A stretch of 64,000 bases of DNA from a virus. Taxonomy: Duplodnaviria > Caudoviricetes. The notes beneath the pieces were generated by a model. The model did not search any database. It was not told where the DNA came from and saw only the letters and a list, made by a program, of their open reading frames with translations. The position numbers and the translations under genes are program-made. Positions 20,253-36,750 of this stretch are shown here, one piece after another (within the stretch, counting starts at the first letter, position 1; each line of letters starts with the position of its first letter). The DNA is taken from the IMG/VR virus record IMGVR_UViG_3300009031_000221, positions 288,001 to 352,000 of that record; one strand, 5' to 3'.

Positions 20253-21011
20253 ATGAGTAACCTTGACAACAATAGTGACAAGTGGATTTCGGTATTGGAG
20301 ACGTTGCCTATAGACTGGCGATTTGTGTTGGGTTGGTATCCATCGGAGGATCCGAACGGGATCAACACGGTGTTTCGTTCTGAGGGGCGTTGGTGGGGAA
20401 TCAACCTGTGCAATTCGAGGTTTGGCAATGGTGATTGTGCTGCTCCTTTGTATTGGCGATATTTGCCGTCTGGGCCTAATGGGGAGGATGTCTATGCGCC
20501 GCACCCTGCGATAGCGGAGAGGGCAACGGCCTGGATCAAGGCGGAGGCGCTTGTGGCAGCGATTGTGAAGGCTGAGGGCGACGGAGTCGGGGTAGAGAAG
20601 CGAGAGTTTGGTAGTGTCCTGTCTCCTGATACCGATTGGAAGGAGATTGAAACGATATGTTTGTCCTTACCTGATTACTTGCATATTCGGCGTAACCATT
20701 TCGTGTCATTGACGGGTGTAAATGACACGAAGAGTGAACGTGGGGAGTTGTTTGGTGCGAATGACGGGGCATCCGGTACGCCTGGACAGATCCCGTGCCC
20801 AATCAGATGCCATTTGACGGCCTTCATCTACCGTCAGTCCCTGGGGCATGGCCAGTTCGATCATGTCCATGATGATCAGGACGTTCCCATCGTACATTTG
20901 CAGGTTTTGGATCCTCTGATCAACCACGAGGTCGAAGATCGGGCCATAGAATGTCTGCATGACCTGAATGCGAGGATCGTAATCCCGGCTGAATACCAGA
21001 TTGGCAACTGA
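20253..21011 (+). CDS. Hypothetical protein, paralog of 19662, with a run-on tail antisense to the next gene
   Basis: Similarity ends at RGELF (about 20755); remainder overlaps 20706-21317. Confidence 0.6.
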   Translation: MSNLDNNSDKWISVLETLPIDWRFVLGWYPSEDPNGINTVFRSEGRWWGINLCNSRFGNGDCAAPLYWRYLPSGPNGEDVYAPHPAIAERATAWIKAEALVAAIVKAEGDGVGVEKREFGSVLSPDTDWKEIETICLSLPDYLHIRRNHFVSLTGVNDTKSERGELFGANDGASGTPGQIPCPIRCHLTAFIYRQSLGHGQFDHVHDDQDVPIVHLQVLDPLINHEVEDRAIECLHDLNARIVIPAEYQIGN

Positions 21012-21317
21012 CCGCTCAGGGTCAAGGAACAGAACTCGGTTGTTTGGATCCTTGTCAATCCACCCCTTGGCGATTGCACGAAGAACTGTCGTTTTCCCCG
21101 TGTTCGCCTCGCCTGCGATAACATGGTCATTGGCGAAGGTACATTCATTTATCAGGCTACGGCCACCATCACCGTAAATGACGCCGAAGTTCATCGCCTT
21201 GGCCATTTGCCGATTCCGCTTCGGGTCAACCTTGGCCTCAACGGCACGGGGCAGGAAAGGCACAGCCATTGCGGCCAGGGCAGTGGCGAGGAAGTTACGG
21301 CGTGTCGGGTTCGTCAT
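20706..21317 (-). CDS. Chimeric protein: Tat-like signal, PolA motif-B-like peptide, RecA/DnaB-like P-loop fragment
   Basis: TRRNFL; RQMAKAMNFGVIYG; GEANTGKTT, VLFLDPE, LIIMD, CPVI..KQL. Confidence 0.65.
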   Translation of the reverse strand: MTNPTRRNFLATALAAMAVPFLPRAVEAKVDPKRNRQMAKAMNFGVIYGDGGRSLINECTFANDHVIAGEANTGKTTVLRAIAKGWIDKDPNNRVLFLDPERSVANLVFSRDYDPRIQVMQTFYGPIFDLVVDQRIQNLQMYDGNVLIIMDMIELAMPQGLTVDEGRQMASDWARDLSRRTGCPVIRTKQLPTFTLRVIYTRQ

Positions 21318-21346
21318 GGGGAGTCCTTGTATGTAGATCGATCTAT

Positions 21347-22021
21347 TTACGCAATTGGCGGGGCAATTAGGTCTACCTGATTGAACGCCGCCTCGATCAT
21401 TTCGTTGAACTTGGCACGCTGAATTGATTTTGCCTCATCATAGCGAGCTTCAATGCCAGTGTTGGTACGAAAGCCTCGTTCAGCAAATGCCTCTCGGGCA
21501 GCGCGGGCGGCGCTACGACATTCACGAACAACACTGCTAGGGGTATATCCCGTTGAAGCATGCACGGCAGCAAGGCTGGCTTGATAACCTGATTCAGTAC
21601 GGGTATTCAGCATGGCTTCGTATGCTATCTCACGTGATTCGGCACGAATGGTTTCATCCCCTGTTTCCAAGTAACGCTTGACAAGCTCAGGGCAATCCCA
21701 ATCGGAAACAACCTGAAGGACACACCAACGGGCATATTCACGGAGGGTTGAAGTTGCATCAATCCGTTTTAGGTGCGTCCGTTTACTTGCGGCAACCTTA
21801 TCCCCATGATGTTCTACGATGGTTCCGCCTAGTTCTACTAGGTCAAGCGTTGGGCTACCTGCGGCTGCATAATGCAGTGCGTCGTACGGGTCTACTGAGG
21901 CATGCAGGCCATTGTGGCAAGCAGTGATTTCGCCTTCCTGAATGTAGGGCTCAGGGCGAACCTCATAGATGATAGTGCCGTGCTGTGCAAGCCCTTTGTT
22001 ACTGAACCAGTAGGCTTTCAT
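21347..22021 (-). CDS. MKAYWFS-family paralog
   Basis: CHNGLHAS.DP.DAL, EYARWC.L, YLETGD. Confidence 0.75.
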   Translation of the reverse strand: MKAYWFSNKGLAQHGTIIYEVRPEPYIQEGEITACHNGLHASVDPYDALHYAAAGSPTLDLVELGGTIVEHHGDKVAASKRTHLKRIDATSTLREYARWCVLQVVSDWDCPELVKRYLETGDETIRAESREIAYEAMLNTRTESGYQASLAAVHASTGYTPSSVVRECRSAARAAREAFAERGFRTNTGIEARYDEAKSIQRAKFNEMIEAAFNQVDLIAPPIA

Positions 22022-22653
22022 GGAGTTTCCTTGGCGAATGCTGCATCGATCATTTCGTTGAACTTGACACGGAGAGGAATGATGGCGATTTCATCCGCGA
22101 TTGTATGTGAAGTTGTAGCGTCGACGACAGCGTATGCGGCTTCTTCCGCATCCCCTGCGACAACGTTAGGGTGACATGCCATGCAGGCAGCCCTATTCGC
22201 ACGATGAACAACCGTACGATCACCCTTTACCATAAGCACCCTATTAGCATCATAGACGGCCTTGTATGCCTTCTTCTGAAGGGTAGGATCCCCCGTTTCC
22301 AGGTATTGCTTGACAACTTCCGGACATTCCCAAAGGTGAATGACCCGAAGGGCACACCAACGAGTAAACTCACGGATAATCGGAAGGGCATCGATACGCT
22401 TGATGTGCGTACGATGGCTTGCCACGTACTTGTGATTCAATCCTATACCGTGTTCCTTGATCTGGCCATCAAGCTCCACGATATCGACCATGTTCCCATT
22501 ATTGGCGAACAACAATGCTTGGAAAGGATCCTCACCGGCATGGAGCCCGTGTATACAAGGGACAACAGGCTCATCCTCTACAAAGGGCTCAGGGCGAACT
22601 GTGTAGGTGTTTCCGTGGGATCTTCCACCCTTGCTAAACCAATAGGCTTTCAT
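22018..22653 (-). CDS. MKAYWFS-family paralog
   Basis: CIHGLHAG.DP..AL, EFTRWCAL, YLETGD. Confidence 0.75.
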   Translation of the reverse strand: MKAYWFSKGGRSHGNTYTVRPEPFVEDEPVVPCIHGLHAGEDPFQALLFANNGNMVDIVELDGQIKEHGIGLNHKYVASHRTHIKRIDALPIIREFTRWCALRVIHLWECPEVVKQYLETGDPTLQKKAYKAVYDANRVLMVKGDRTVVHRANRAACMACHPNVVAGDAEEAAYAVVDATTSHTIADEIAIIPLRVKFNEMIDAAFAKETP

Positions 22654-23216
22654 GCTTTTTCCTCACTCGATGGTTGCGTCATCCCACGGTCGAAGATCTC
22701 TACGTCAATGCGTTCTCCTGCCATGGCGGATTCGGCGGAATTCTTGACGCCCTGGTTTGCAACACCTCGCACGTATTCGATGATATCGGACAGTTTGTTC
22801 AAGGAATTCCGTGCGTCCTCATAGAGGGCTACGAATTGTTCGTTATCGTTGGTTACCCAACGGCGAATAGGGCTGCCATTTTGGGCTCTTGTAGATCCTA
22901 CTGCAAACTCCCCAAAGCCATACACCTTCATGGCGTTCTGGGTGCATTCAATGGTGGAAATGATCATATCTACATCGGTCAGGATGGTACGGGAAGTGTA
23001 GGCATGTCCGGTACGGACAAGCTTTTGGATGACATCTCGCCGAGTGAGGGCGATGAACATGGGGTTGTAATCCCTTGGAAGCTCAAACACATTCGTTCCC
23101 GCCATGGACTTCCATCGCACCATCCGTTGTTCAGCGGTTGTCCGTGACAGGACAGATACGCCCTTGAGAGCCCCAATGACAAGAAGGATGGCGATGAGGA
23201 TTCCAAGAAATTCCAT
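22650..23216 (-). CDS. Membrane-anchored hypothetical protein
   Basis: N-terminal hydrophobic helix; ATGA coupling. Confidence 0.65.
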   Translation of the reverse strand: MEFLGILIAILLVIGALKGVSVLSRTTAEQRMVRWKSMAGTNVFELPRDYNPMFIALTRRDVIQKLVRTGHAYTSRTILTDVDMIISTIECTQNAMKVYGFGEFAVGSTRAQNGSPIRRWVTNDNEQFVALYEDARNSLNKLSDIIEYVRGVANQGVKNSAESAMAGERIDVEIFDRGMTQPSSEEKA

Positions 23217-23252
23217 GACGGGTGTAGCTCCAATGCAGTCCGTTATTCTACG

Positions 23253-23522
23253 CTACCACTTGATGATCCAGGAGGTACTTTTGGGTTGGGACGTGTACGT
23301 GGGTTGGAATCCACGTTTTAGTAGATCCGCTTTGATGGATTCGGCACCATCGTCAACAAAGTCAAGATCGATACATACTAGGTTGAGGTGTGGATGTGTT
23401 TTCACCTGATTGCGGATCCTCTGATCGATGGCCCGCAAAGCGTCATTGATATTATTTGTGGAGTACTGCTGTGCCAACAGTTTTACCCCCGCAGCAGTCA
23501 GAAGATTATCATCCATGTGCAT
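23253..23522 (-). CDS. Hypothetical protein
   Basis: Directly downstream of a promoter motif. Confidence 0.65.
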   Translation of the reverse strand: MHMDDNLLTAAGVKLLAQQYSTNNINDALRAIDQRIRNQVKTHPHLNLVCIDLDFVDDGAESIKADLLKRGFQPTYTSQPKSTSWIIKW

Positions 23523-23550
23523 TATCCTTATGAAGGTATCCCCAGGACGA

Positions 23551-23577
23551 TCTACGCAGGTTGGGCTAGAAGTAAGC
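23551..23577 (-). promoter_or_regulatory. Bipartite promoter-like motif (GCTTACTT-N12-GCGTAGA)
   Basis: Plus strand reads TCTACGC-N12-AAGTAAGC. Confidence 0.75.
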
Positions 23578-23584
23578 CCCGCGA

Positions 23585-24043
23585 TTAGACCTTGGGCTTG
23601 CCGTTGGTCAGATGGGCCAGGAGCGCCGCGAACTCGAACTTGTTGAGCCGACGGTCATCCGGCAAATCCTTCAGGCGCAACAAGATTTCGCTTTCGTCAC
23701 CCTTGGCGACGTTGAGGAATGCCAGGTCTTCCTCGGCGATGTCCACTTCCCACAGGGGACGGGCACGCTTGCCGACGAAGACGTAGGGCAAGTCGGAACC
23801 GGCGTAGGAACTGGAATGCCCGTGGTCGGGGACTTCGCCGCCCGGGGAGTGCATGTTGAAGGTTTCGCACACAACGACCTGATTTTCCCACATGACACGC
23901 AACGTGGTGCCCTCGGGGATGATCAGGGCATGCTTGCGGTCATGCGTGCCGGAGGCGGAAATGGACTCCTTGCGCTGGATGAAGCGGAAGCCCCAGTCAT
24001 TGCCCTCTGCCAATCGAATGAATTTCATCGGTTCCTCCACCAT
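23585..24043 (-). CDS. Hypothetical protein (GC-rich)
   Basis: Between two promoter motifs. Confidence 0.65.
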   Translation of the reverse strand: MVEEPMKFIRLAEGNDWGFRFIQRKESISASGTHDRKHALIIPEGTTLRVMWENQVVVCETFNMHSPGGEVPDHGHSSSYAGSDLPYVFVGKRARPLWEVDIAEEDLAFLNVAKGDESEILLRLKDLPDDRRLNKFEFAALLAHLTNGKPKV

Positions 24044-24083
24044 GTAGTTCGTGTGACAGGGTTTAGTCCATGTCTACACGTCA

Positions 24084-24110
24084 TCTACGCGATGGTTCCG
24101 GTAAGTAAGT
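24084..24110 (-). promoter_or_regulatory. Bipartite promoter-like motif (ACTTACTT-N12-GCGTAGA)
   Basis: Plus strand TCTACGC-N12-AAGTAAGT. Confidence 0.75.
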
Positions 24111-24322
24111 CATCCAAACAGAACGTAGTAGACGCTAGCGATAACGGTAAGCCCTACCACGAATCCTAGGAGCCTATAGCGTGTAGGGGAATAGGATACC
24201 TTGGTGGCTGGTGCGTCTGCCAAAGCTTCGTCCAACTGGGCATCGATCTCAGCGCTTGTCATGACCTTCATGCGACGTGTCATAGTGCCCTCGTGTCCTG
24301 TTCGGTTACTTCTGCCAGCCAA
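24110..24322 (-). CDS. Small membrane protein
   Basis: C-terminal hydrophobic helix. Confidence 0.55.
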   Translation of the reverse strand: MAGRSNRTGHEGTMTRRMKVMTSAEIDAQLDEALADAPATKVSYSPTRYRLLGFVVGLTVIASVYYVLFG

Positions 24323-24564
24323 TCCCGAAATCCTGTATTAGCCCACGGCATTGCAAGCCGATTGGTTTCATTCTTCAGGGTGCTAAATGACATCTTGAAT
24401 GGGTCATTCTGACCAAACAAGTCCAGATAGGCACGCTCCCATAACCGGCGTTGATCGGGCAAGCATCCATCTATGGCAGCTAGTTGCACGGCACGATAGT
24501 AAACAAAGGGATGTTTGAATTCCCCTTTATTTGCAAGCACACGTTCAAGATAGCCCGGTGTCAT
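24280..24564 (-). CDS. Hypothetical protein
   Basis: ATGA coupling. Confidence 0.6.
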   Translation of the reverse strand: MTPGYLERVLANKGEFKHPFVYYRAVQLAAIDGCLPDQRRLWERAYLDLFGQNDPFKMSFSTLKNETNRLAMPWANTGFRDWLAEVTEQDTRAL

Positions 24565-24941
24565 AGCGGGTCTTCCTCAATGTCATGCTGTGTCCCAAGG
24601 CAAAGGAATTCCAGTTCATCATGGATGTGATCCAGTTGGGCCTGCCGATACTGGGTCGCAGCGGCGATCAACATGATCTTCCTGGGACTCGAGTGATCGA
24701 ACAGCAATCCATAGTAGCCCAAAGCATCGGTAGACGCTTCCGCCAACTTCGTTGCAAGCTCGAGCACATCAGGCGTAGGAGGCCAGTTGAAGAAGTTCAT
24801 GACTGCCTCAGGCGTTTTCGTGACCGGATGCCCCGTACGACGCAGAAACTGCCCTGCATCCAACACACGGTTGCGGCCTTTGGATTCGTCGCTCTGCATG
24901 TAGGCGGAGATCAATTCAGATGTCAAGTAATCGTCAATCAT
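24561..24941 (-). CDS. Hypothetical protein
   Basis: Coupled. Confidence 0.6.
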   Translation of the reverse strand: MIDDYLTSELISAYMQSDESKGRNRVLDAGQFLRRTGHPVTKTPEAVMNFFNWPPTPDVLELATKLAEASTDALGYYGLLFDHSSPRKIMLIAAATQYRQAQLDHIHDELEFLCLGTQHDIEEDPL

Positions 24942-25602
24942 TTGTGTATCCTTTATAGTGCGGGAACAAGGCGGAACGCGCTTGAATCCCTAGATTCTGT
25001 CCTCTGCAATCATCAAGGGGTTTGGTCGCATGCTTCCAAGGATTCCCGATAATGTCCTGTTTTTCCATAGGGGAGTCGGAATAGTATGCTGCCATGCCCA
25101 GTTGAGTGAATAGCACACTCACAGGTCCCTCCTGGGTATCCGAAATAGCTACGGGGTGTACCTGAATAGGGATACAAACTTGATTGACTCGTGGGTCAAT
25201 CTCGCGGGCGGTTCCCACCAAGGCAGTGATGCAGTCGTTCAATGAAATCCGCAGTGATTCAATGGCATTATTGGCAATAACCTCCATTGAATCACTGGGG
25301 TTTGTGTTGTATGCCAGTTCAAATAGCGGGATAGTTACCCTCCTGCCTGTCCGGTTCTCTAGAATATCGTTCCCATCCTCCCCGAGGAAGAATACAGGTG
25401 TGTTCGGATCTTTGTCATAGATAGGGGCACATCCTGAAGGCAAATCATCGAAATGAACGTGAATGGACTCCCATAGGATACCCTTTGGAAGGATGTTTGC
25501 TTTAGATACCAGGGGAGTGGCAAGGGATGATCGGGTTTGGAAGCCGAGAATGGCAGCGATCGATACTCCCAATGTATTGTGGAGGAATGTTCGACGATTC
25601 AT
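24934..25602 (-). CDS. Tat-signal protein resembling an internally deleted major capsid protein
   Basis: MNRRTFL; LPSGCAPIYDKDP...GEDGNDIL....RRVTIPLFELAYN matches my recollection of a large-phage capsid family. Confidence 0.55.
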   Translation of the reverse strand: MNRRTFLHNTLGVSIAAILGFQTRSSLATPLVSKANILPKGILWESIHVHFDDLPSGCAPIYDKDPNTPVFFLGEDGNDILENRTGRRVTIPLFELAYNTNPSDSMEVIANNAIESLRISLNDCITALVGTAREIDPRVNQVCIPIQVHPVAISDTQEGPVSVLFTQLGMAAYYSDSPMEKQDIIGNPWKHATKPLDDCRGQNLGIQARSALFPHYKGYTND

Positions 25603-25614
25603 GATCCCGTATCC

Positions 25615-25941
25615 TTATAGCGTGAAGGCGTATGGTCCCGTGGTCATAGGGACTTCCTTGACTGTACCGTATTCCTGCCGTGCCCATTGGCGGAGCAAAC
25701 GCCCAGGTTCGTCCGATGTACCCTCAATGAGATCCCAACGGACTGGAGGTCCGTCCACGTCCCCTTCATCATTTGTCGTGTCAATGACAAATTGTTCGAC
25801 TTGGTACATGTAGTCTATACCCGTTCGCCCCCCAACCATTGCGTACAAATTTCCTGGGGGTTCCGATGCGTCATAAATCTTCAAGAACATGCATTCCTCC
25901 TTAGTGCACGATGGGTTGCCCCATTTTGACCGGTAACCCAT
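25615..25941 (-). CDS. Hypothetical protein
   Basis: Likely internal start MFLKIY. Confidence 0.55.
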   Translation of the reverse strand: MGYRSKWGNPSCTKEECMFLKIYDASEPPGNLYAMVGGRTGIDYMYQVEQFVIDTTNDEGDVDGPPVRWDLIEGTSDEPGRLLRQWARQEYGTVKEVPMTTGPYAFTL

Positions 25942-26416
25942 CGTTCACGTCATGGACCGCGTAGGGTTCCGCCAATGGGTACGATTGAGCTATCCTTAGG
26001 GATGTTTCCAACAGGTCAGGGGTTGTCATATCAATCGCTTCTTTTCGCCGTTTACGATCTTTTTCATCGTTCAAAGTCCAAAGCGTCTTCGTGGATCGCC
26101 CCATGAATATTTCATGTTGGAGGATCTCAAAATTGGGACCAACAAATACACGGGCTACCAATGTGGGTGTCGGGGGTTCTTCATACCTCCCCAAAACGAA
26201 CATCCATATGCCGTCAAAACATGAATCAATGCTTATGCGAACCCACTTCTCTGGCATGGCATCACAGAGGTGATTTGTGGCAGCATGATCGGTTTTTGGC
26301 ATATTATTTTCCATGATTCCGTCGATTCTTCCCAATTGCCCGCGTCTTGATGTCGTCATGGATGACATAGACCGTAGCGATGAATTGTGCTGTCGTGATG
26401 ATACCGATAAGGGCAA
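25901..26416 (-). CDS. Hypothetical protein
   Basis: Likely internal start MPKTD. Confidence 0.55.
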   Translation of the reverse strand: MPLSVSSRQHNSSLRSMSSMTTSRRGQLGRIDGIMENNMPKTDHAATNHLCDAMPEKWVRISIDSCFDGIWMFVLGRYEEPPTPTLVARVFVGPNFEILQHEIFMGRSTKTLWTLNDEKDRKRRKEAIDMTTPDLLETSLRIAQSYPLAEPYAVHDVNDGLPVKMGQPIVH

Positions 26417-26466
26417 TGCTACTTACGGTGAGTGCCGTAATGCTAGCTGCCTGCTTGATGGATTTT

Positions 26467-26907
26467 CTACTGAGCCTCATTGGTTTCTTCCTTCTTCTCA
26501 ATGCCCTGCATAGAGGCCATCAGGTTTATGGCGAAGATCCCAAAGGCATGACTCTCCGGTGAGTCATCAGGCGGAATGAACAGCCTTGGGTGTCCTTCCG
26601 CGATGGCCTTAGCCCTTGCCTTGGCCTCTAACGTGTACCAAGCAGGCAACTTGTGCCGATAGTTGGAAGTCGGGCCAGTGATGCACACCAAGTTCAGCAG
26701 GGTGGCACGATCAACGTCTACCGCATCAAGGATGGCATTCAGACCTTCGCAGTCATTGAGCATCCCGTTGAACATGATGTCTTGAATCGCCTCATATTCT
26801 CCGTCCGTCATATCCTCTTGCGAATAGAAGTTGATGGATTCCAGTGTTTCAGATGGCGTCATTTGATTTCCTCTTTCAGTTCGCCCATGGGTTGGAGATC
26901 CTTCCAT
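26467..26907 (-). CDS. Hypothetical protein, weakly similar to 46718-47026
   Basis: AI.D.V.....L...T.....LP pattern. Confidence 0.55.
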   Translation of the reverse strand: MEGSPTHGRTERGNQMTPSETLESINFYSQEDMTDGEYEAIQDIMFNGMLNDCEGLNAILDAVDVDRATLLNLVCITGPTSNYRHKLPAWYTLEAKARAKAIAEGHPRLFIPPDDSPESHAFGIFAINLMASMQGIEKKEETNEAQ

Positions 26908-27065
26908 TTTTCAGCCCCGGCGGAGGTCTCACGAAAGCTTATGATCGTTACGTCTACCCTGTAACCGTCAGGTGTGGAGTAGACGTAGGTAGGACAACCT
27001 CGGTTTGCCATGTCGGCACTATAGAATCCGTAGATCTTATTGCGTTTGCGGAATATGCGACACAT
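26859..27065 (-). CDS. Hypothetical protein
   Basis: Directly downstream of a promoter motif. Confidence 0.6.
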   Translation of the reverse strand: MCRIFRKRNKIYGFYSADMANRGCPTYVYSTPDGYRVDVTIISFRETSAGAEKWKDLQPMGELKEEIK

Positions 27066-27089
27066 GTACCATAAACCTCTTCAGATTGA

Positions 27090-27116
27090 TCTACGCATAC
27101 ACGGGTTGAAGTAAGC
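27090..27116 (-). promoter_or_regulatory. Bipartite promoter-like motif (GCTTACTT-N12-GCGTAGA)
   Basis: Plus strand TCTACGC-N12-AAGTAAGC. Confidence 0.75.
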
Positions 27117-27189
27117 CTATGCCCCTAGTTCGTTTATACACATTACCTCTGTAGAGACCCTCCTATATTGTAGGGCGCGGGAGGTTATT

Positions 27190-28068
27190 TTGGCTGGCGA
27201 AATCAAAGGAACCCAGATTAGCAATGAATCCATTGCTAAAACACACATGACTGTTGGGTTGCAGGGTGAACTTGATGCCAAGGCATTGGATTCGGCTGTC
27301 CTTAAGAAGGACGGATCCGTTGTTCTGACTGGGCCGTTGGCGGGAATCGCGGGTGTAGGGCCTACAGACCTCGTCACTAAATCCCAGTTGGATAGTGTTG
27401 CCGGCGGATCCCTAATCCGCAATCAAGTGCTAGATTCCCTGGCTGCTCAACCGGGACACGTTGAAGGCGCTCGATACCTTGCCACTGCTACAGCAGGCGA
27501 TTGGGTCATCAATCACCTCTATACGTCTCTTTTGGGCGTGTGGGTGGATGATGGCGCACCGGTTGTTGGTTGGCTGGTCTATGACATCGCGGCGGGGGAT
27601 TGGAAATATTTCGATGGTGTTAATTGGATACCGAATTTCCAAGGGTTTCAAGTAGTTCATGCAGGGAACGGTCTAACAGAAGACGGTGCCAAAAACTTCA
27701 ACGTGAATGTAGACGGCACTTCCATTCAGATCACCGGCGGCATCCTGGAAATTGTACCCAGTACCACAGCGCCCTTTGAGGCTATTATTGAATCCGTTCT
27801 AAGCCCTCACACGGCAATTGAATCTATGGTTCTTGTCAATCCTCCGGTTGCTATTGCTTTCACTGTCAACCTGCCGGCGGGGGCAACACATGCTACGAAG
27901 CGTGTAACCGTCAAAGATAAGAAAGGGATGTGCTCGGATATAACTACCCAAATCACCATCAATGCTTTTGCCGGGGAAACCATTGACGGGGATGCAAGCA
28001 TACAGATTGACAACAATAAAGCGGCTGTGTCGATGGTGTTTAGTGGCACCGAATGGAGTGTGATATGA
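27190..28068 (+). CDS. DUF2793-like tail-associated virion protein
   Basis: GARYL....G.W......GVW....P..GWLVY......YFDG.NW; GGAGG RBS with TTG start. Confidence 0.65.
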   Translation: MAGEIKGTQISNESIAKTHMTVGLQGELDAKALDSAVLKKDGSVVLTGPLAGIAGVGPTDLVTKSQLDSVAGGSLIRNQVLDSLAAQPGHVEGARYLATATAGDWVINHLYTSLLGVWVDDGAPVVGWLVYDIAAGDWKYFDGVNWIPNFQGFQVVHAGNGLTEDGAKNFNVNVDGTSIQITGGILEIVPSTTAPFEAIIESVLSPHTAIESMVLVNPPVAIAFTVNLPAGATHATKRVTVKDKKGMCSDITTQITINAFAGETIDGDASIQIDNNKAAVSMVFSGTEWSVI

Positions 28069-29255
28069 GTTACCCAGGTTCTAACGTTCGTGTGGCTCAA
28101 TATGATGGTTCGATGTTTGGGGGTACTCGTGCCCACCAAGATTTAGCTGTATTTGAACGATTGCATGACTATCCGGGCGTTGCAACTGCATATGACACGG
28201 AATCCTACGGATTTGATACGGGTGGTGTCGTGGGTACGGCAACACATGTACCTAACACAGGATCCATTCGTCTGGCTTTGTCTGATGCTACGGTATCTAA
28301 GAAAGCTCGTTTACGGTCACACGATATCATCCGGTATCAACCGGGATGCATGCCTATTGTTCAAATGACGGGGGTGTCATCATCCAATGCAGGCATGATT
28401 TTGAAGTGTATTCGTCGGACATCCACGTCGGGTGTTCCTGTGGATAACGTTGAAGCGACCATTGCAGGCATTGATGCTGCAACCGAGAATAGGTATGAAC
28501 TTCGGTATGCCTACCTTGGTGTTCAAGGTGTTCAGTATTACGTCAATGGAAATCTGGTCCAAAACTCCATTTTGGCGGGAACATTGACGGTTCCTTTCAT
28601 GAAGACCCCACATTTGCCCATATCAGTTGAGATCCAAACTTTGGTCGATGGTTCACAAGTAATTCGACTTGGGGTTTTCGATGACTCTGATGGGTTGTTC
28701 TTTGAATGGTCTCGTGCCGTTGGGTCTGCCGCTGCATTTTCCTATGACTACAAATGTTCGTCAGGTCGATTGATTGGGGGGTCGGTATATCCGTTCCATA
28801 CTTATGGGATGACCAGGGCTACAACAGGTACGGGGGCTGCAATGATCCCATTGTTCAGTATTCGCCCAAAGGCGACTTTGAACGGTATCCCCTCCCGTGT
28901 TCAAATATTCCCGACTCAGGTTTCTTTCTTTAGTGAGTCTCAACCCGGTGCTTTGGCAATCATTATGAACACAACCTTAACAGGGCCTACATGGGTATCC
29001 GCTTCCCCTAGCCCTGCCGTGGAAGTGGATGTTGCCGCTACTCTTGTGGCCGGGGGGACTACTTTGTGGCAAGTAGGGCAAGGTGCCAATCAACAATACA
29101 CCTATGATCTATCCAAGCTATTCACCTTGATTGGTATCAAACTTCGTCACCAAGCCTTCACGGGGACTGAGGATATCCTAACTTTCGCCGTTCAACGGGA
29201 AGGGGCTGTCAATTTTGATCCCCGTGTGACAGTAACCTGGGACGAATTGCGTTAG
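28065..29255 (+). CDS. Putative virion structural protein (beta-rich)
   Basis: RYQPG, LGVFDDSDGLFFE, PLFSIRPK; ATGA-coupled to the DUF2793-like gene. Confidence 0.6.
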   Translation: MSYPGSNVRVAQYDGSMFGGTRAHQDLAVFERLHDYPGVATAYDTESYGFDTGGVVGTATHVPNTGSIRLALSDATVSKKARLRSHDIIRYQPGCMPIVQMTGVSSSNAGMILKCIRRTSTSGVPVDNVEATIAGIDAATENRYELRYAYLGVQGVQYYVNGNLVQNSILAGTLTVPFMKTPHLPISVEIQTLVDGSQVIRLGVFDDSDGLFFEWSRAVGSAAAFSYDYKCSSGRLIGGSVYPFHTYGMTRATTGTGAAMIPLFSIRPKATLNGIPSRVQIFPTQVSFFSESQPGALAIIMNTTLTGPTWVSASPSPAVEVDVAATLVAGGTTLWQVGQGANQQYTYDLSKLFTLIGIKLRHQAFTGTEDILTFAVQREGAVNFDPRVTVTWDELR

Positions 29256-29264
29256 CGCCAATGT

Positions 29265-30063: not shown

Positions 30064-30307
30064 GGACTAGTTCAAGGGCAACCTTCTCTTTCGTCATGGG
30101 CTCTTCTTTGTAATCCTCAATGTACTTGTCAACCTCATTGCACAGGTCATCGAAGGACAAGGACTTTGTGGAATCGAGCATGTGGACGATGAATCCGCAC
30201 TTGTCCCACGCATCGGATACCGCATAGTTTATGCCAGTCCCGTAGATTCTAAAATGCGGTTTCAAATCGCCACTGATATCATGTGTGGAACGGATGAACT
30301 TCGCCAT
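30023..30307 (-). CDS. Hypothetical protein
   Basis: Coupled. Confidence 0.6.
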   Translation of the reverse strand: MAKFIRSTHDISGDLKPHFRIYGTGINYAVSDAWDKCGFIVHMLDSTKSLSFDDLCNEVDKYIEDYKEEPMTKEKVALELVLALEWGFASTVEE

Positions 30308-30519
30308 TAGTCTAACTCGCTATGGGGGATGAGTTTAGGTATCACTTGCTGTGCCATGAATATCCAAAGACCTTCAGGCCAGCAATCTAAATCCCCATCT
30401 GGGAGGTCTGAATTAACTGGGCATGGCCAGTACTTCGTTTTGACCCTTTGATCGATGGTGTCCGTATCCAGCATCTCTATTGTGCGTGTACTGGATGATT
30501 GATAGATTACAAGGAACAT
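30307..30519 (-). CDS. Hypothetical protein, paralog of 30519
   Basis: LP.GD...WP.G.WI shared. Confidence 0.65.
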   Translation of the reverse strand: MFLVIYQSSSTRTIEMLDTDTIDQRVKTKYWPCPVNSDLPDGDLDCWPEGLWIFMAQQVIPKLIPHSELD

Positions 30520-30758
30520 CAGGGTACCTTCCAGGTCGTGATCATCTGCACCGGACGGGGGAGTACCAAGTCACCCTTGATGATCCATACGCCCAAAGGC
30601 CAGGATTCAATGTCACCGTGAGGTAGGGTGTCACTGCAGAACTTCTGTTCCCCATCCATACCCCACTCATTGAGCAAGGATTCAAGCTTGGTTTGATCCA
30701 TATGCTTGATGGTGAGTTCGTCGGGAGTCCGTTCGATGACAACATAATTTAGCCGCAT
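30519..30758 (-). CDS. Hypothetical protein, paralog of 30307
   Basis: LP.GD...WP.G.WI shared. Confidence 0.65.
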   Translation of the reverse strand: MRLNYVVIERTPDELTIKHMDQTKLESLLNEWGMDGEQKFCSDTLPHGDIESWPLGVWIIKGDLVLPRPVQMITTWKVP

Positions 30759-30782
30759 GACGCTTGTTCCTTTTTAGCGGGT

Positions 30783-31814
30783 ATGGTTCTAGGCATGGAG
30801 GTGCCTATGTCTGATCTACCCAATATCATCGAATTCGCAGCTAGCGTTCTCGATATTCATCTAACACCCGTTCAATGTGTCATATTGAAAGCACATTACG
30901 GTATCCCGTTGGATACAGAGACCCTGTTTGAGATATGTACGCCCCAACTGGCGACGGGGCAATTTATCGTAAACACCTGGACGGAAGCAAAGTACTTGGA
31001 ATACTTGTACTATGAAGGCAGGTCGAATATCCGAGAGGTAGACCACGAACGGCGGGAACTCGTCTTGGCGAGCGGCAGACGGAGTGGCAAGGGGATGCTT
31101 GGGTGCATCATTGCTGCCTATGAGGCATACAAGTTGGCATGGAAGGGCGATCCGCAGGCCTACTACGGTTTGCCCCCAAGCACCGTCCTACAGATTCTGT
31201 TGGTGGGTACCGACAAGGATCAGGCGGGGCTCATTCTTCATGAGGTCAATGGATTCCTCCGTAGCACTCCCCTGAATGACCATCGTGCGAACAATACGCA
31301 GACCTACATGCGATTCCAGACACGGAAGGACATTGATACCTACGGGTCATGGGTGGATGACTTGACGGCAAAGGCCTCTATCAAGGTGACTGCAACGTCT
31401 AGCAATCACCAAGGGCTTCGTGGAGCCGGCAATATTTGTGTCATTTTAGATGAGTTGGCACATTACAAGGAAGCCGAGAACGTCTACCATGCCATCATGC
31501 CTTCGATCATGCTCTTCTCCAAGAAGGCGGAGGACAAGCGCACACCCGTTGGCTCATGTGAAGGGCGTTTGGTAAGCCTGTCAACCCCGAATGGGAAGCG
31601 TGGCATGTTCCACAAGTTGTTCATGGCGGGATTCAATGAAAAGCGTAGCGACAACATGCTGTGCTTGCAAATCCCGACTTGGGAAGCGAATCCGTCTATT
31701 CCGATGGAATTCTACACGGAAATGTACGAACGTCAGCCCAAGTACTTTGGCGTGGAATACGGGGCACACTTCGTAGACCTGTGTTGCCCTCAGTGCGGGT
31801 GCGAATTGGCCTAG
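30783..31814 (+). CDS. Terminase large subunit ATPase-domain-only paralog (no nuclease domain)
   Basis: LTPVQ..ILK, GRRSGK, DKDQA, GLRG.....ILDELAH, LSTPNGKRG.F, PTWE.NP, EYGA.F.D, then stop; likely start ATG 30807. Confidence 0.8.
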   Translation: MVLGMEVPMSDLPNIIEFAASVLDIHLTPVQCVILKAHYGIPLDTETLFEICTPQLATGQFIVNTWTEAKYLEYLYYEGRSNIREVDHERRELVLASGRRSGKGMLGCIIAAYEAYKLAWKGDPQAYYGLPPSTVLQILLVGTDKDQAGLILHEVNGFLRSTPLNDHRANNTQTYMRFQTRKDIDTYGSWVDDLTAKASIKVTATSSNHQGLRGAGNICVILDELAHYKEAENVYHAIMPSIMLFSKKAEDKRTPVGSCEGRLVSLSTPNGKRGMFHKLFMAGFNEKRSDNMLCLQIPTWEANPSIPMEFYTEMYERQPKYFGVEYGAHFVDLCCPQCGCELA

Positions 31815-32230
31815 GCCTTATTCGGATTATTCCGAGTGCACCATGCCAGGTATTCATCAAAATTGATTCCCGTAATTTGTTGGATAAGCACGCTAACGTC
31901 TCCCAGATGAGCGTCACCAAGAATCATCATGATCTTGTAGATTTGATCCTTGGTTTCTAGCTGCGGTTGGATTGCGGCGCACCATGCTTTCTTGATCGTA
32001 TCCGGCAAGTCATCGAACTCGGGCATGGGCAAACCCTGATAGTTCTTGTTGTCCGTTACTGCCGCATAACGTGCGTATGCCTCCCGTGCGAGTTTCAATT
32101 CCAACTCCGCATGCAGGCAATCCTTCAATGAAGGGAATGGGAAAGGCCTATCCGATTGGGCATGCTCGTCTCGTTCTATGATTTCTTTGAGAGTCTCAAA
32201 GAAACCTTTATCGATGTCTTTCTGTGTCAT
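31811..32230 (-). CDS. Hypothetical protein
   Basis: Coupled run. Confidence 0.6.
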   Translation of the reverse strand: MTQKDIDKGFFETLKEIIERDEHAQSDRPFPFPSLKDCLHAELELKLAREAYARYAAVTDNKNYQGLPMPEFDDLPDTIKKAWCAAIQPQLETKDQIYKIMMILGDAHLGDVSVLIQQITGINFDEYLAWCTRNNPNKA

Positions 32231-32565
32231 TGTGGAGTCCTTTCAGGGCTATTGGGGAGCCATCCCGTGTAATCGCATCCATGAGGGCATGGCTCAGGGT
32301 AAATGCCTGCCCAGTGTCCCTCGTGAATGGGGCATTTCTCAGTTCTAGGTTCCTCGTTGGCATAGATCAATCGTGCCAATAGGTTGGATTTGCTGATCAT
32401 GTTGCGGAACACCCGCAATTGGCGTTGTCTATCATCCCCTAGATAGTTCCCCACCAAGTTAGCCCATTGTTCCAATTTGCGGCAATAGCGAGATACCGGC
32501 ATGACCGGTTCTCCGTAGTGCTTCGCTAGTTGCTTCAGCATGTCCTCGGCTTCAGGGGTCGTCAT
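32227..32565 (-). CDS. Hypothetical protein with C-terminal Cys/His cluster
   Basis: CP.H.GHW...PCP.GC...GW. Confidence 0.6.
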   Translation of the reverse strand: MTTPEAEDMLKQLAKHYGEPVMPVSRYCRKLEQWANLVGNYLGDDRQRQLRVFRNMISKSNLLARLIYANEEPRTEKCPIHEGHWAGIYPEPCPHGCDYTGWLPNSPERTPQ

Positions 32566-32756
32566 TGCGGTGTCCTTATAGTGGGATCCTTGATGTTGTG
32601 ACGTGCTGCGAATTCCTTTACGTCAGCTTCCAGCTCTGCCATGGCTTGGGCTTCTGAATATCCTTCTTCCCACCCGCTTTCGCATTCCGTATAGATGATG
32701 CCATTACGTTCGGATTCATAGTAGAATTTGAGCAATTCTTCGGTATCCTTGATCAT
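32562..32756 (-). CDS. Hypothetical protein
   Basis: ATGA coupling. Confidence 0.55.
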   Translation of the reverse strand: MIKDTEELLKFYYESERNGIIYTECESGWEEGYSEAQAMAELEADVKEFAARHNIKDPTIRTPQ

Positions 32757-33052
32757 TTGTGTACCCCATAGTGCTTGGGCTTCTCGACTCCGCTTTCCTT
32801 GGCGTACTCCCCGCGTTGTGCAAATACGTTAGCATTCCAACGTCCGCCATAGGGCTTGTATGTTTCCATATTGTTCATCCACTTTACTGCGACCTCGTAT
32901 CGTTCCTTCCAGGTAAACGGCATGGGTTCGTGGTACAAGTCCCATCGGACTTTACGCCACATGCCAAAGAACACGTAGTAGGGGACGGCACGCTCCACGA
33001 TAATGGTTTCGCCGATGATCCTTGTGCGATAGGCTTGTTCGATTAGTGTCAT
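32753..33052 (-). CDS. Hypothetical protein
   Basis: ATGA coupling. Confidence 0.6.
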   Translation of the reverse strand: MTLIEQAYRTRIIGETIIVERAVPYYVFFGMWRKVRWDLYHEPMPFTWKERYEVAVKWMNNMETYKPYGGRWNANVFAQRGEYAKESGVEKPKHYGVHK

Positions 33053-33657
33053 GCGACTCCTTTATCCCACCAGTCATCATACTTGTAACCGGGCGTGTTC
33101 TTGACGACTTCATCCATACCCCTGGTCTTGAAGATGCCGTCTCGGTCTTTGAGGGTCACCCAACCTTGAGCACAATCGACTTCAGGATGCAATGCGGAGA
33201 GGGCGATGACATTGTCTGCGGTTCGCATCCATTTATCCGGGATGGATTCTCCATAGTACATGACAACATAACGATGTCCTGACTGAAGGCAAACCCACTT
33301 CAACAAGTCTGGATCGAGGCAGCAATCCCGAGAACTCCTCGTGTATTCAACTGCCTGATCCCCATGTTGATTGGTTTCGGAAAGCCCAAAGCTAGCCCGA
33401 TAGCGCTTGAATGCCGAAACTGCTAAGTCATGCCATTTCGATCCTATGCAAGGGGCATTGGATACGTGAACAAGCGTCATCGTGCCCAAGGGCTCAATAG
33501 GCACTAGGCGACTCACAATGACCTCAGGGTGCCAGTAATGCCCCATCTGCATATTGGACACGGGCACATGGGCATCCGCCGCCTTGGCTACCCTGGCGCC
33601 AACGAACAACCCACCGAGGGCGAGGAATGACTTGGACAGGAAGTTGCGACGGTTCAT
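33049..33657 (-). CDS. Tat-signal-containing hypothetical protein
   Basis: MNRRNFL, hydrophobic core, AKA-A cleavage-like site. Confidence 0.65.
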   Translation of the reverse strand: MNRRNFLSKSFLALGGLFVGARVAKAADAHVPVSNMQMGHYWHPEVIVSRLVPIEPLGTMTLVHVSNAPCIGSKWHDLAVSAFKRYRASFGLSETNQHGDQAVEYTRSSRDCCLDPDLLKWVCLQSGHRYVVMYYGESIPDKWMRTADNVIALSALHPEVDCAQGWVTLKDRDGIFKTRGMDEVVKNTPGYKYDDWWDKGVA

Positions 33658-34385
33658 GATGAGGCTCCTGGCATGTATTGTGCGATCTTCTTCTCAAGGG
33701 TCGGGTGTATGGGCCACTTTGGGTCTCTCAGGACGTATGCCATGAACCCCTCCGCGAAGACCTCCCATGCCATAGGATACCCAATTTCATAGTAAGGCAA
33801 ATTGTGGTGCGATACCGGATGCCGGAATGTCCGAATATCAGGCTTGAATGCCGCTTCCAGGAAGTCATTTAGTGGAATATCCTTAGGGATATGTTTCTTG
33901 ATGCTGTCTAATGGGGGTGTATTCATGTGCTTGTGTGCCATATAGCGGCAACGATACCATAGAGTTGGGTAATGCTTGAGGAGTGCCCTTTGCAAGTCAT
34001 CCCAGGTACGGGCATTGTACTTCTCAACGGCATGCAGAATCTCCTTGCGAGGAGTCAGTGCCGTGTGTTGATTGACCCATGCAGTGAACTCAACCGATTG
34101 TGCGTCAGTCAGGCAATTGAAGAAGTAGGCATGCCCGAGTTCATGAATAACAACATGAACCAATTCATCCGTTTTACATGCGACCTGGACGAAACCCCGA
34201 TATCGGTAAATGCCCTGCAACTTAAGACCCGCGCATGTGATTTTGTAGGAGTTGTAGAGCTTTATCGGGATGGGGCTTAGGTCTTTGATACCTAGGGCCT
34301 CCATCTTGGATATGCCTTCATTGATGGCCAATTCGGCTTTCGCCTTCTCGTCCTCAGGCCATTTGCCTTTCCATATGAGGCTCAT
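33654..34385 (-). CDS. Zincin-like metallopeptidase
   Basis: VIHELGH (HExxH) and downstream EVFAE third-ligand motif. Confidence 0.7.
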   Translation of the reverse strand: MSLIWKGKWPEDEKAKAELAINEGISKMEALGIKDLSPIPIKLYNSYKITCAGLKLQGIYRYRGFVQVACKTDELVHVVIHELGHAYFFNCLTDAQSVEFTAWVNQHTALTPRKEILHAVEKYNARTWDDLQRALLKHYPTLWYRCRYMAHKHMNTPPLDSIKKHIPKDIPLNDFLEAAFKPDIRTFRHPVSHHNLPYYEIGYPMAWEVFAEGFMAYVLRDPKWPIHPTLEKKIAQYMPGASS

Positions 34386-34664
34386 TCAGTACTCCAACTC
34401 ATATCGGGAATGCCCTGGTTTGGGATACATAACTTCGATGAGCGTGCAATGATTGCCGTCTGCATCTATGCCACAGCCCTTGCCGTCCGAATTCACCAAG
34501 TCAAATGGGAGGATGTATTCGCATGGGAATTGATGAGATGATTTGCCCCATTCCTTCCAAAGGGCTCCTGCACGCTTGTTGTCCCACTTGTATGCCCCAA
34601 AGCGAGGCAACATGTAGGCCACATGCCGTTGAAAGTCTGCCGCTGCCGGGGATACGTAGATCAT
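34386..34664 (-). CDS. Hypothetical protein
   Basis: Coupled run. Confidence 0.55.
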   Translation of the reverse strand: MIYVSPAAADFQRHVAYMLPRFGAYKWDNKRAGALWKEWGKSSHQFPCEYILPFDLVNSDGKGCGIDADGNHCTLIEVMYPKPGHSRYELEY

Positions 34665-34993
34665 GACCTTCTCTTTAGGGATTCAAACGCCGAGTTGAAG
34701 GCTTCTTCGATAGCTGCAGGCAATTCCTTGATGGAGATACCCGTATGATCGGATACTTCTACCGTGATGGGGAACATGAGATCCCCCCAGGACTTATTCA
34801 TTATAACGGGTTGAACGGTGAATAGGCATCCAGGGAATTGCTTCGCCGCTTCCATCAATTGTGCTGCCCCAAGGGTGGTCACTCGAGGAAGAAGATCAAG
34901 CCTATTAGGAGGGATGCAAGGCTCTGCCGCAAGGTATACCTTGTCATCCTTCATGAATGCGCTGTAGGGAAGGTCACCCATGGCTATTACCAA
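34661..34993 (-). CDS. Hypothetical protein
   Basis: Coupled run. Confidence 0.55.
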   Translation of the reverse strand: MVIAMGDLPYSAFMKDDKVYLAAEPCIPPNRLDLLPRVTTLGAAQLMEAAKQFPGCLFTVQPVIMNKSWGDLMFPITVEVSDHTGISIKELPAAIEEAFNSAFESLKRRS

Positions 34994-35631
34994 TCACTGC
35001 TATCGGTTGCGTTCAATACTTCCTTGGTTACCAAGTCCGTCACGTATACGGCGGTTCCTACACGGCAATCCAAGAACTTGAATTTGAACCGGGAACCTGA
35101 CATGGGCGGGGAAGGATGTGCCGCCAAGGCCTTGGTTGTCCATTCAATGATCCGTTGCATCTCCACACCGCCGACGTGGCAAATGTCAGGGTGACAATCG
35201 GGCAGAGTGCCATAACGATCACGATCAGGTGCCTCAAGGGGTTCCAAACATTCCTCGAGCTTGACTGATAGCTCAATCCCGAACTCTATGTCGGACATGA
35301 GAACCCATACATCCTGTGGCATGTCATGATCCGTTACGATCATTGCCCCGTGCATATAAGCCCTGATGCCTTGATCTATCAGCACCTTTTGGTTTTCAGG
35401 GTCAAAATTATCACGCCAGAACTTCCGCACTTCCGGATAGTTGAACGGGTGCATGACGATATATGCAACTTTGCCATCGCGTCTTTCAATCTCATCCCAT
35501 GCAGGATGAATCTTTTCAGGCCCTAGATGGCGTGAGTCGGCTTTGAAGTCCGGTGCCTGAAGGGCCTTCGCTCGAGCCTTGGTTTTCACAGTATCCATGA
35601 AACTAGAAAATGTGACAGGTTCCGTTACCAT
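34987..35631 (-). CDS. Hypothetical protein
   Basis: 214-aa ORF in coupled run. Confidence 0.65.
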   Translation of the reverse strand: MVTEPVTFSSFMDTVKTKARAKALQAPDFKADSRHLGPEKIHPAWDEIERRDGKVAYIVMHPFNYPEVRKFWRDNFDPENQKVLIDQGIRAYMHGAMIVTDHDMPQDVWVLMSDIEFGIELSVKLEECLEPLEAPDRDRYGTLPDCHPDICHVGGVEMQRIIEWTTKALAAHPSPPMSGSRFKFKFLDCRVGTAVYVTDLVTKEVLNATDSSDW

Positions 35632-35840
35632 TCGTCCTCCTCGTCATCCTCTAGCAGGTCTATTTCACCGGTTCTCAGGTCTATGTACCCTAAATAGGCG
35701 TGTGTTGTAGGGTCTACAAGCATGATGTTGCCGACAGCATTGCGTTCAAGGCCTATGACCGGGGACAATTGCTTCAGGGTGCTACTGAGTTGCTCAACAG
35801 TTATCATACCTTCTTCCTTGCCAAGGGGTGCGGATGGCAA
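35625..35840 (-). CDS. Hypothetical protein with acidic tail
   Basis: Likely start MITVE. Confidence 0.55.
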   Translation of the reverse strand: MPSAPLGKEEGMITVEQLSSTLKQLSPVIGLERNAVGNIMLVDPTTHAYLGYIDLRTGEIDLLEDDEEDEW

Positions 35841-36289
35841 CCAACGTGGCTTACGCAGTTCTCGATGTTCATCAGGAAGTCAAGGGCCTCGGCCTGACCG
35901 ATACCCTTTTCTTCGGCAGTCTTTGCGACCATTTCCCACATTTCCGCTTCGGGAATCATCTCGTATTCGGATGGTTCGAATGCCTTGAACATCAACCCTG
36001 CATTCGCAGCGTCTTCACATGTTGGATTCCCTGACCCAAGGATATGCCTTGGTAAAGGGTTATCCTTCTGCCATTGTCGGTTGAATTTCAAGATCTCAGC
36101 CTTGTCAACAAGGTATCCGTAGGTTTTCCACTGCAACCGCTCTTCCCGGGCACGACGGACACCATTGTAGAGCTGGGTTCTTCCTTCAGGTGTCTTGAGG
36201 GCATCCCGAATCATCTTCATGCGGACTTCCGCATTGATTGTATTTGTCATACGGTAGCCTTCTTCCTTACTAGCGGGTGTGGGTGGCAC
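35804..36289 (-). CDS. Hypothetical protein with capsid-N-helix-like start, paralog of 36247
   Basis: MIRDALKTPEGR.QL; shared C-terminus EP..YE..PE.E.WE.VA...GCHPHPL.RKK. Confidence 0.65.
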   Translation of the reverse strand: MPPTPASKEEGYRMTNTINAEVRMKMIRDALKTPEGRTQLYNGVRRAREERLQWKTYGYLVDKAEILKFNRQWQKDNPLPRHILGSGNPTCEDAANAGLMFKAFEPSEYEMIPEAEMWEMVAKTAEEKGIGQAEALDFLMNIENCVSHVGCHPHPLARKKV

Positions 36290-36750
36290 CCTGGGGCGTT
36301 GTTATTCCATGGAAACTTCATGATGGCACGAACGGCAAGGACTTCGGTTAGGGCGTGTTCTTGTGCGTGCTGGGCTACCTTTTCCCAGAACTCGGACTCA
36401 GGCACTGCCTCGTAGTCCTCAGGTTCATACGCTACCCACCATACGCCGGCGGCAAACAACTCATCTCGCGGCACGTCATGAAAGTGTATGGGAAGAGGGC
36501 AACTCAGCCCTTCATCTGTGTGCAGGAATTGTTCAGGGTGTTCCTTGACGTACTTGAAGTACGCTTTGTCGTCAAAGCCCCAATGGTGCAAATACATGCG
36601 GCTGTCTATGGTATTGACAAAGGATTGGTAGATACGGTGCCGTCCCGTTGGGTAATTAAGGCATCGTGTCAAGGCCTTCAGGTAATCCTGTTCGATCTTG
36701 CTGTCCTTGAGGGGAGGAGTTTCCGTGAGGTCATGGATAGCGCCCATCAC
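36247..36750 (-). CDS. Hypothetical protein, paralog of 35804
   Basis: L..P.GR..IY and shared C-terminus. Confidence 0.65.
   Translation of the reverse strand: MMGAIHDLTETPPLKDSKIEQDYLKALTRCLNYPTGRHRIYQSFVNTIDSRMYLHHWGFDDKAYFKYVKEHPEQFLHTDEGLSCPLPIHFHDVPRDELFAAGVWWVAYEPEDYEAVPESEFWEKVAQHAQEHALTEVLAVRAIMKFPWNNNAPGCHPHPLVRKKATV

Follow-up and report, generated by a model that had tools for sequence, protein, structure and literature searches.

Apparently old and selectively kept pieces of a phage's own major capsid protein and large terminase, rebuilt as modular accessory proteins

The stretch of DNA analyzed here, the 64,000-nucleotide window, comprises bases 288001 to 352000 (G000:C1:288001-352000) of a single virus contig of 536,053 bp and 52% G+C, the genome of a phage of groundwater origin. 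Between 19 and 39 kb the window contains mostly small minus-strand genes. Among the genes in this part are those for TerL-N, a copy of the large terminase (TerL) of this phage that is confined to the ATPase domain and devoid of the nuclease domain, and for several proteins containing pieces of the phage's major capsid protein (MCP). A first-pass annotation had named five open reading frames (ORFs) in this part as truncated core phage proteins and had suggested that they form a set of decoys for bacterial anti-phage sensors. All five ORFs were indeed intact, and the same five were marked as genes by gene callers in contigs from two other samples (L007 and L008), which were 100% identical to the window over 13 to 21 kb. 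Due to this complete identity, a strain-level ratio of nonsynonymous to synonymous substitution rates could not be estimated from these contigs. A megablast search of GenBank phages yielded no match to the region.

The only full copy of TerL in the genome is a 653-amino-acid (aa) protein encoded on the minus strand at genome positions 151771-153732. It adjoins a putative portal gene at 149.4-151.1 kb, which was assigned from the conserved adjacency to TerL in related loci and not by a portal model. TerL-N is located at 318.8 kb of the genome, among small accessory genes and outside this packaging and head module, and its likely start is preceded by GGAGG. Residues 14-332 of TerL-N aligned with residues 23-383 of the phage's own TerL at 46.8% identity (E = 1.6e-97), and among the terminase PHROGs TerL-N matched phrog_2 (E = 3e-12). 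The elements expected of a TerL ATPase, which are a Walker A motif, a Walker B motif with the catalytic glutamate, and a coupling motif, were all present as GRRSGKG, LDE, and STP, respectively, followed by a CCPQCGC tail; the Walker A motif keeps its lysine but reads GKG where GK[T/S] is expected. The C-terminal RNase H-like nuclease domain is absent, as the ORF stops 11 residues past the ATPase domain and a convergent gene follows directly with a 4-nt overlap. A terminase split by an intron or intein could be ruled out because the full TerL is intact elsewhere in the genome, and a third "TerL-like" hit at 455 kb turned out to be no terminase but an ATPase of the PhoH type.

When 5.8 billion proteins were searched, full-length terminases as well as short proteins with the boundaries of TerL-N were returned. 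At least 15 nuclease-less copies belonging to this family were found in other phage contigs, at least 8 of them by a metagenome scan and within contigs of up to 285 kb. The short proteins correspond to TerL residues 23-383 without the nuclease and fall on one side of a single branch that split 7 short from 13 full-length sequences with 98/98 support, in a tree that was midpoint-rooted only and in which the long branches of the two most divergent short members make their placement insecure. This points to an old family in which the short proteins may have a single origin. TerL-N is a fast-evolving protein with long branches, and its distance to the phage's own terminase is about the same as that to foreign terminases of the clade (43-51%). 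The precomputed hits of the family carry the Pfam label PF27249 MJ0330_N, and a search by sequence with the family profile found no solved structure. An N-terminal PVQ..LK..YG motif is kept in the short family and in full-length TerL alike, and the Walker B and coupling motifs, which full-length TerL also keeps, are present in most short members. The threonine or serine following the lysine of Walker A was lost in 5 of 15 short proteins versus none of 12 full-length ones (Fisher P = 0.037). Some members of the family thus have relaxed catalytic residues. In place of the nuclease, the tails vary between cysteine knuckles, ribbon-helix-helix-like pieces (these on sub-threshold Pfam hits only), a small beta unit, or nothing at all. 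In a 296-kb relative, a terminase 71% identical to that of this phage is seemingly split into several adjacent ORFs (L009:9699-11550), possibly as a result of a frameshift, an intron, or misassembly.

The second parent, MCP, is an HK97/encapsulin-like protein of 291 aa encoded at genome position 137.2-138.1 kb (phrog_2522, E = 1.2e-48), and its sequence is 75-91% identical among relatives of the phage. Segments 40-54% identical to MCP, representing the N-terminal helix, the presumed E-loop with the spine helix, or the A-domain, occur at differing positions in otherwise unrelated proteins (Table 1). No carrier possesses the complete HK97 fold (N-arm, E-loop, P-domain with spine helix, and A-domain); each matches a part of MCP, and no family match was obtained for the parts outside the capsid segments. 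The similarity to the capsid family was significant for two carriers. The 222-aa protein was 50% identical to MCP residues 51-98 over 48 aa (E about 1e-10; shuffle z = 20.9), and hhalign aligned it with MCP residues 23-100 at a probability of 95.6% over 71 columns. The 214-aa protein aligned with MCP at an E value of about 3e-9 and a z of 16.5; it also matched phrog_2522 (E = 7.4e-4), and its structure matches in the Atlas were capsid families. The evidence for the 148- or 161-aa protein is weak: starting from the likely Met1, it is colinear with MCP residues 1-108 (z = 8), its roughly 27 N-terminal residues matching the MCP N-terminus, and hhalign returned an E value of 0.0045 and a probability of 8%. 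Its C-terminal domain (EYE.IPE.E.WE ... HPHP) recurs in three other proteins of the genome. Its tandem paralog of 166 or 167 aa showed no direct similarity to MCP (shuffle z = 1.7) and is tied to MCP solely by this paralogy.

The partial terminase and the partial capsid-like protein of 222 aa predicted by the first-pass annotation were thus both borne out. The two proteins that it had described as resembling the capsid N-terminal helix fared differently, with faint agreement for the one at 35804-36289 and none for its paralog. Profile searches, which it had asked for as a check of the parents, identified them for TerL-N (phrog_2) and the 222-aa protein (hhalign) and did not establish the polymerase or helicase ancestry treated below. 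It had missed the 214-aa protein, for which the parent was likewise identified (phrog_2522), and the two tandem plus-strand paralogs of 197 and 252 aa, which sit just before the start of the region that it had singled out.

Searches for further homologs and models were less productive. Database searches with the 222-aa protein, by single-sequence and two-sequence profile, returned only the protein itself, and a metagenome scan found nothing; scans of IMG/VR found no close relatives of the 214-, 161-, or 203-aa proteins. With AlphaFold2, neither the 222-aa protein (pLDDT 37) nor MCP (pLDDT 31) gave a model good enough for fold searches, the 222-aa protein was poorly modeled in the Atlas as well, and a predicted complex of MCP with residues 12-145 of the 214-aa protein scored 0.01, which allowed no verdict.

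Age and selection could be read from the codons. The capsid segments had no similarity to the capsid gene at the nucleotide level; third codon positions matched in 15-35% of the cases, versus 45-77% for the first and second positions. Since third positions are saturated and first and second positions conserved, these segments should be old copies under protein-level constraint. Saturated silent sites, intact orthologs, and conserved motifs rule out recent pseudogenes, and the segments are likewise not the sporadic pseudogenes that the first-pass annotation had named as the outcome that would overturn its idea. A single decayed second head module was also ruled out, because several overlapping capsid segments are present as two or more copies. 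Within 17 kb, the terminase piece lies together with three of the five independent capsid-piece loci, for which simulation gave a P of about 0.001. By all appearances of its sequence, the region is thus a collection of old, selectively kept, domain-level derivatives of the phage's own MCP and TerL, rebuilt as modular proteins.

Table 1. Positions of the derivatives of TerL and MCP and of associated genes and motifs (window coordinates unless marked as genome coordinates)
Feature	Position	Strand	Remark
TerL-N, ATPase-domain copy of the phage's own large terminase without nuclease	30783-31814	+	Likely start 30807
222-aa protein; twin-arginine-type signal (MNRRTFL...SLA), then segment like MCP residues 23-100	24934-25602	-	
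126-aa gene; 8-nt overlap with the end of the 222-aa gene	24561-24941	-	Adjacency kept in the 520-kb relative (L033:14292-14570)
214-aa protein; residues 42-136 resemble MCP 168-260 (A-domain region)	34987-35631	-	
148-aa (start 36250) or 161-aa protein, capsid-N-terminus-like	35804-36289	-	Weak evidence
Tandem paralog of 35804-36289, 166 or 167 aa	36247-36750	-	Paralogy E = 1e-16
Two tandem paralogs (197 and 252 aa), C-terminal parts like MCP 174-237	19647-20240 and 20253-21011	+	Missed by the first-pass annotation
Capsid-piece carrier, MCP 1-40 in mid-protein	Genome 472305-472931	+	Outside the window
Capsid-piece carrier, MCP 29-55 at the C-terminus	Genome 513700-514023	-	Outside the window
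203-aa protein; twin-arginine-type signal, stretch of about 20 residues like motif B of polymerase A, P-loop NTPase (nucleoside triphosphatase) domain	20706-21317	-	
Third twin-arginine-type protein (MNRRNFL...AKA)	33049-33657	-	No parent identified; chance-level 17-residue MCP echo
Fourth twin-arginine-type signal protein	63884 onward (genome 351884-352450)		
Proteins with the LIRLAHANPELRxHLVPLLRK motif	Genome 158035-158490, 114744-115304, 213608-214117, 385163-385582, 511180-511851, 465983-466825, 257842-258504		Outside the window

A protein from another phage contig connects both kinds of fragments. P0016, a 543-aa protein encoded on the JGI contig Ga0172381_10018520, contains a TerL-N domain (residues 4-346) and a piece of the capsid A-domain, with residues 439-520 being 48% identical to MCP residues 158-237 (E = 4e-19), and it is matched by the PHROG models of terminase and of the major head protein. 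Its Walker B and arginine-finger positions are degenerate. An identical protein, P0036, is present on an ENA contig whose reads may not be independent of the JGI sample, and the IMG/VR scan found no close relatives of the P0016 tail. The capsid segment in P0016 is the same one that is carried in the window by separate genes located 3 kb from TerL-N. This fusion suggests that the two kinds of fragments are functionally linked in at least one lineage.

In a 520-kb phage contig (L033), counterparts of several genes of the window are found within 8 kb, namely of the 203-aa gene, the 222-aa gene with its downstream partner, the 112-aa gene, the part of the 214-aa gene encoding the C-terminal domain, and the DUF7666 genes. 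The ortholog of the 222-aa gene (L033:13596-14276) encodes a 226-aa protein of 37% identity that retained the twin-arginine N-terminus as well as residues shared with MCP (PIYD.D and R...P.FE). This protein is itself significantly capsid-like (z = 10.9), and a looser pairwise alignment extends its similarity to MCP residue 143, into the presumed spine helix. The part of the first-pass annotation that had assumed repeated domestication of core-gene fragments therefore holds, given the supported TerL-N branch, this distant ortholog, the saturated third positions, and P0016. The DUF7666 family is represented by six paralogs in the genome, two in tandem at 21347-22653 on the minus strand of the window and four at other sites of the genome, and in the 520-kb relative DUF7666 copies are likewise near the homolog of the 203-aa gene. 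In another related locus, an Apyc1-like (anti-Pycsar) gene was observed among homologs of window genes (L036:4204-5154); the Apyc1-like homolog of this genome is located at 432649-433566, 120 kb away.

The fifth ORF had been described as a chimera of PolA and a helicase, and this did not withstand the analysis. The 203-aa protein belongs to a family with seven representatives, all with an invariant arginine pair, a hydrophobic stretch, and a P-loop domain. The motif-B-like stretch of 20 to 25 residues scored E = 0.0015 with Pfam and E = 2.5e-4 to 7e-3 with NCBIfam, agreed with the phage's own PolA in 10 of 20 residues at a score not above the best chance hits in the genome, and is part of a variable linker common to only two or three members of the family. 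Motifs A, B, and C in a palm and fingers, as required for a family A DNA polymerase, were not found. Walker A and B motifs were present, with only generic P-loop matches (AAA_25, DnaA, Rho, FlhF, and TrbB), all of them below the cut-offs. A polymerase or helicase as the parent of this protein is consequently not established. At window positions 20706-21011, the 203-aa gene on the minus strand and the 252-aa gene on the plus strand overlap convergently by about 300 nt, and the tail of the 252-aa ORF may not be translated.

Twin-arginine (Tat)-type signals start four proteins of the genome, three of them reading MNRR(N/T)FL. By inspection, three window proteins show the RR-x-F-L sequence, a stretch of hydrophobic residues, a c-region with a basic residue, and a cleavage site of the A-x-A type. 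The curated Tat models remained below their cut-offs, with 17.3 versus 22.7 bits for PF10518 and 14.1 versus 16.7 bits for TIGR01409, the latter in the relative only. If the predicted signals work, the 222-aa and the 203-aa proteins would leave the cytoplasm. It is odd to find an export-type signal on a P-loop NTPase, as ATP is absent outside the cytoplasm.

To understand what these proteins may do, the nature of the retained pieces should be considered. They appear to be the contact elements of their parents and, as such, would probably be docking modules. The capsid-derived pieces would bind the capsid protein or its assembly partners, TerL-N would bind partners of the N-terminal region of the terminase and be more a nucleotide-binding adaptor than a motor, and in combination they would tune, or tether, the assembly of the head and the packaging of DNA for a capsid of very large size. 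We tentatively propose, as one possibility derived from sequence comparison, that these proteins serve as modules for docking or regulation, with the head and packaging proteins of the phage itself as their targets. A separate function at the cell envelope is probable for the 222-aa and 203-aa proteins with their export signals, which are outside this docking picture. Several observations weigh against the proposal. The genes belong to a block of small accessory genes at a distance of about 170 kb from the head and packaging module, no neighbor of TerL-N is conserved across 12 loci, two of the proteins carry export-type signals, the similarity of the 148- or 161-aa protein to the capsid N-terminal helix is weak, and the counterpart of the 214-aa protein in the 520-kb relative is devoid of the capsid piece, so that this family of proteins can do without the piece. 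Proteins in which old folds are simply put to unrelated use would fit the same facts.

Such a reuse, in which new accessory genes arose out of duplicated pieces of highly expressed core genes and the likeness is kept by local constraints of the fold only, is the alternative to be taken most seriously, albeit somewhat unlikely; with the same reserve, these proteins would then no longer be concerned with capsid, terminase, or the sensors of either. The carriers are chimeric, with the capsid pieces in N-terminal, internal, or C-terminal positions, two of them have export signals, their non-capsid parts match no family, and domain sharing and portable short motifs are frequent in this genome. The version of the 214-aa protein without a capsid piece in the relative fits as well and indicates that modules were shuffled between lineages. 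However, pieces of 25 to 90 residues cannot form the parental fold alone, yet parental residues were kept while silent sites became saturated, and the fusion of TerL-N to a capsid piece together with the clustering of the loci suggests a shared theme. A use of the truncated pieces as poison subunits would mean that they co-assemble with, and thereby block, the motor or the capsomers of co-infecting related phages or satellites, the phage's own proteins being spared by sufficient divergence. This would agree with a TerL-N that keeps the conserved N-terminal region of the terminase without the nuclease, with its about equal distance to own and foreign terminases of the clade, and with its fast evolution. 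Discrimination between self and foreign would be hard, however, with MCP being so similar among relatives, and export signals do not fit. We know of no experimental precedent in phages for poison subunits directed against competitors and regard this explanation as very improbable.

This leaves the fragments as mimics, which would bind and blunt host sensors of conserved phage proteins or satellite proteins hijacking capsid or terminase, an improbable explanation in our view. Avs families sense capsid protein, RecA-fold ATPases, and polymerases, and the suggested parents of the fragments (capsid protein, terminase ATPase, RecA-fold ATPase, and DNA polymerase) coincide with known Avs targets (preprint 10.64898/2026.01.04.697583). 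The genes are among small accessory genes, with an Apyc1-like anti-defence gene at one related locus; loss of the magnesium-binding Walker A threonine would change the ATP-Mg site read by EcAvs2; and two trigger-type pieces within one protein, P0016, would fit a mimic. For known sensors, however, binding is activation. The ATPase domain of terminase alone activates EcAvs2 and Upx (PMC13601566), so that a mimic of this kind would be expected to trigger such sensors rather than to blind them, and vs.8 of phage T4, a natural stand-alone TerL-like ATPase, is toxic together with EcAvs2 (PMC13601566). Export-type signals on two members would moreover remove these from the cytoplasm, where known sensors act, and the literature searched describes no decoy of capsid or terminase. 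A decoy function as assumed by the first-pass annotation is hence not supported. Because known sensors are activated on binding, self-directed docking modules are preferred over decoys, with low confidence. There is a slim chance that huge phages keep modular, self-derived, and non-activating mimics of capsid and terminase, sometimes fused to each other, that neutralize sensors or satellite hijackers; if true, such mimics would represent an undescribed principle of counter-defence.

Known systems resemble the proteins of the window in single aspects. Gp16 of phage phi29 is a packaging-type ASCE (additional strand, conserved glutamate) ATPase of about 330 residues without nuclease activity, and in this respect it is similar to TerL-N; it is, however, the only packaging ATPase of its phage and has a vestigial C-terminal domain, whereas TerL-N coexists with a complete terminase and is located outside the packaging module. 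The vertex protein gp24 of T4 is a full-length paralog of the capsid protein gp23 and, comparable to the pieces in the window, a duplicated capsid gene kept for a new role. It possesses the complete HK97 fold and is part of the head module, in contrast to segments of 25 to 120 residues in unrelated proteins, two of them with export signals. CpmB of the Staphylococcus aureus pathogenicity islands (SaPIs) and Sid of P4 are capsid-redirecting proteins of satellites that dock on the helper's capsid protein. The likeness would be that of small accessory proteins acting through contacts with the capsid protein, which is only proposed for the window proteins; CpmB and Sid, which are satellite and not phage proteins, mimic a scaffold or build a cage on the outside and are not pieces of a capsid protein. 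DSAD1 is a phage protein that reportedly blocks DSR2 (Garb et al. 2022 and Yin et al. 2024, as cited in PMC13601566), a sensor of a structural protein. Acting on a sensor of a conserved virion protein would be analogous to what the decoy explanation assumes here, but, to our knowledge, DSAD1 is not derived from the trigger of its sensor, which sets it apart from the window fragments. The closest similarity is to T4 vs.8, an uncharacterized stand-alone homolog of the T4 terminase's ATPase domain (Evans et al. 2026, PMC13601566). Like TerL-N, it occurs in addition to a full-length terminase and as a gene of its own, which encodes nothing but an ATPase of the terminase type with Walker A and B motifs; the TerL-N family differs in its variable C-terminal tails, relaxed catalytic residues, and one capsid fusion, and the likeness is by description. 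The toxicity of vs.8 with EcAvs2 (PMC13601566) is the opposite of what a decoy should do.

Some features of the region and of the genome are recorded here in addition. A two-gene cassette on the plus strand at 27190-29255, encoding a tail-fibre-like protein and a virion structural protein of phrog_1645, interrupts the accessory block of minus-strand genes. A 388-aa protein (37016-38182, minus strand) contains three internal repeats, each with a cysteine-rich CxxCC..PW..C.C sequence, and a 152-aa ORF (23585-24043, minus strand) has 80% G+C at third codon positions, far above that of its neighbors, and may have been recently acquired. No tRNA genes were found in the 64-kb window, and the number of sites in a scan for sigma-70 promoters and terminators did not exceed that in shuffled sequence; a CTATAAGGA-like motif upstream of some genes was too rare to be a promoter class. 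A portable motif of 24 residues, LIRLAHANPELRxHLVPLLRK, occurs at N-terminal, C-terminal, or internal positions in seven otherwise unrelated proteins of the genome and is also present in another phage contig (L061:6510-6602), where a TerL-N gene is located about 1 kb upstream of it. The motif could serve as a tag for docking or targeting.

Terminase-like ATPases that stand alone are already on record, as with T4 vs.8, and were left unexplained; the one in the window is placed here into an old family that is widespread in large phages. The literature searched contains no description of short conserved capsid segments scattered through unrelated accessory proteins, nor of a terminase ATPase naturally fused to a piece of capsid protein. 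Whatever the function may be, assembly, packaging, competition, or counter-defence, the set provides concrete and clonable candidates that bear on how head assembly is regulated in very large phages and on how these phages cope with sensors of the same conserved proteins.

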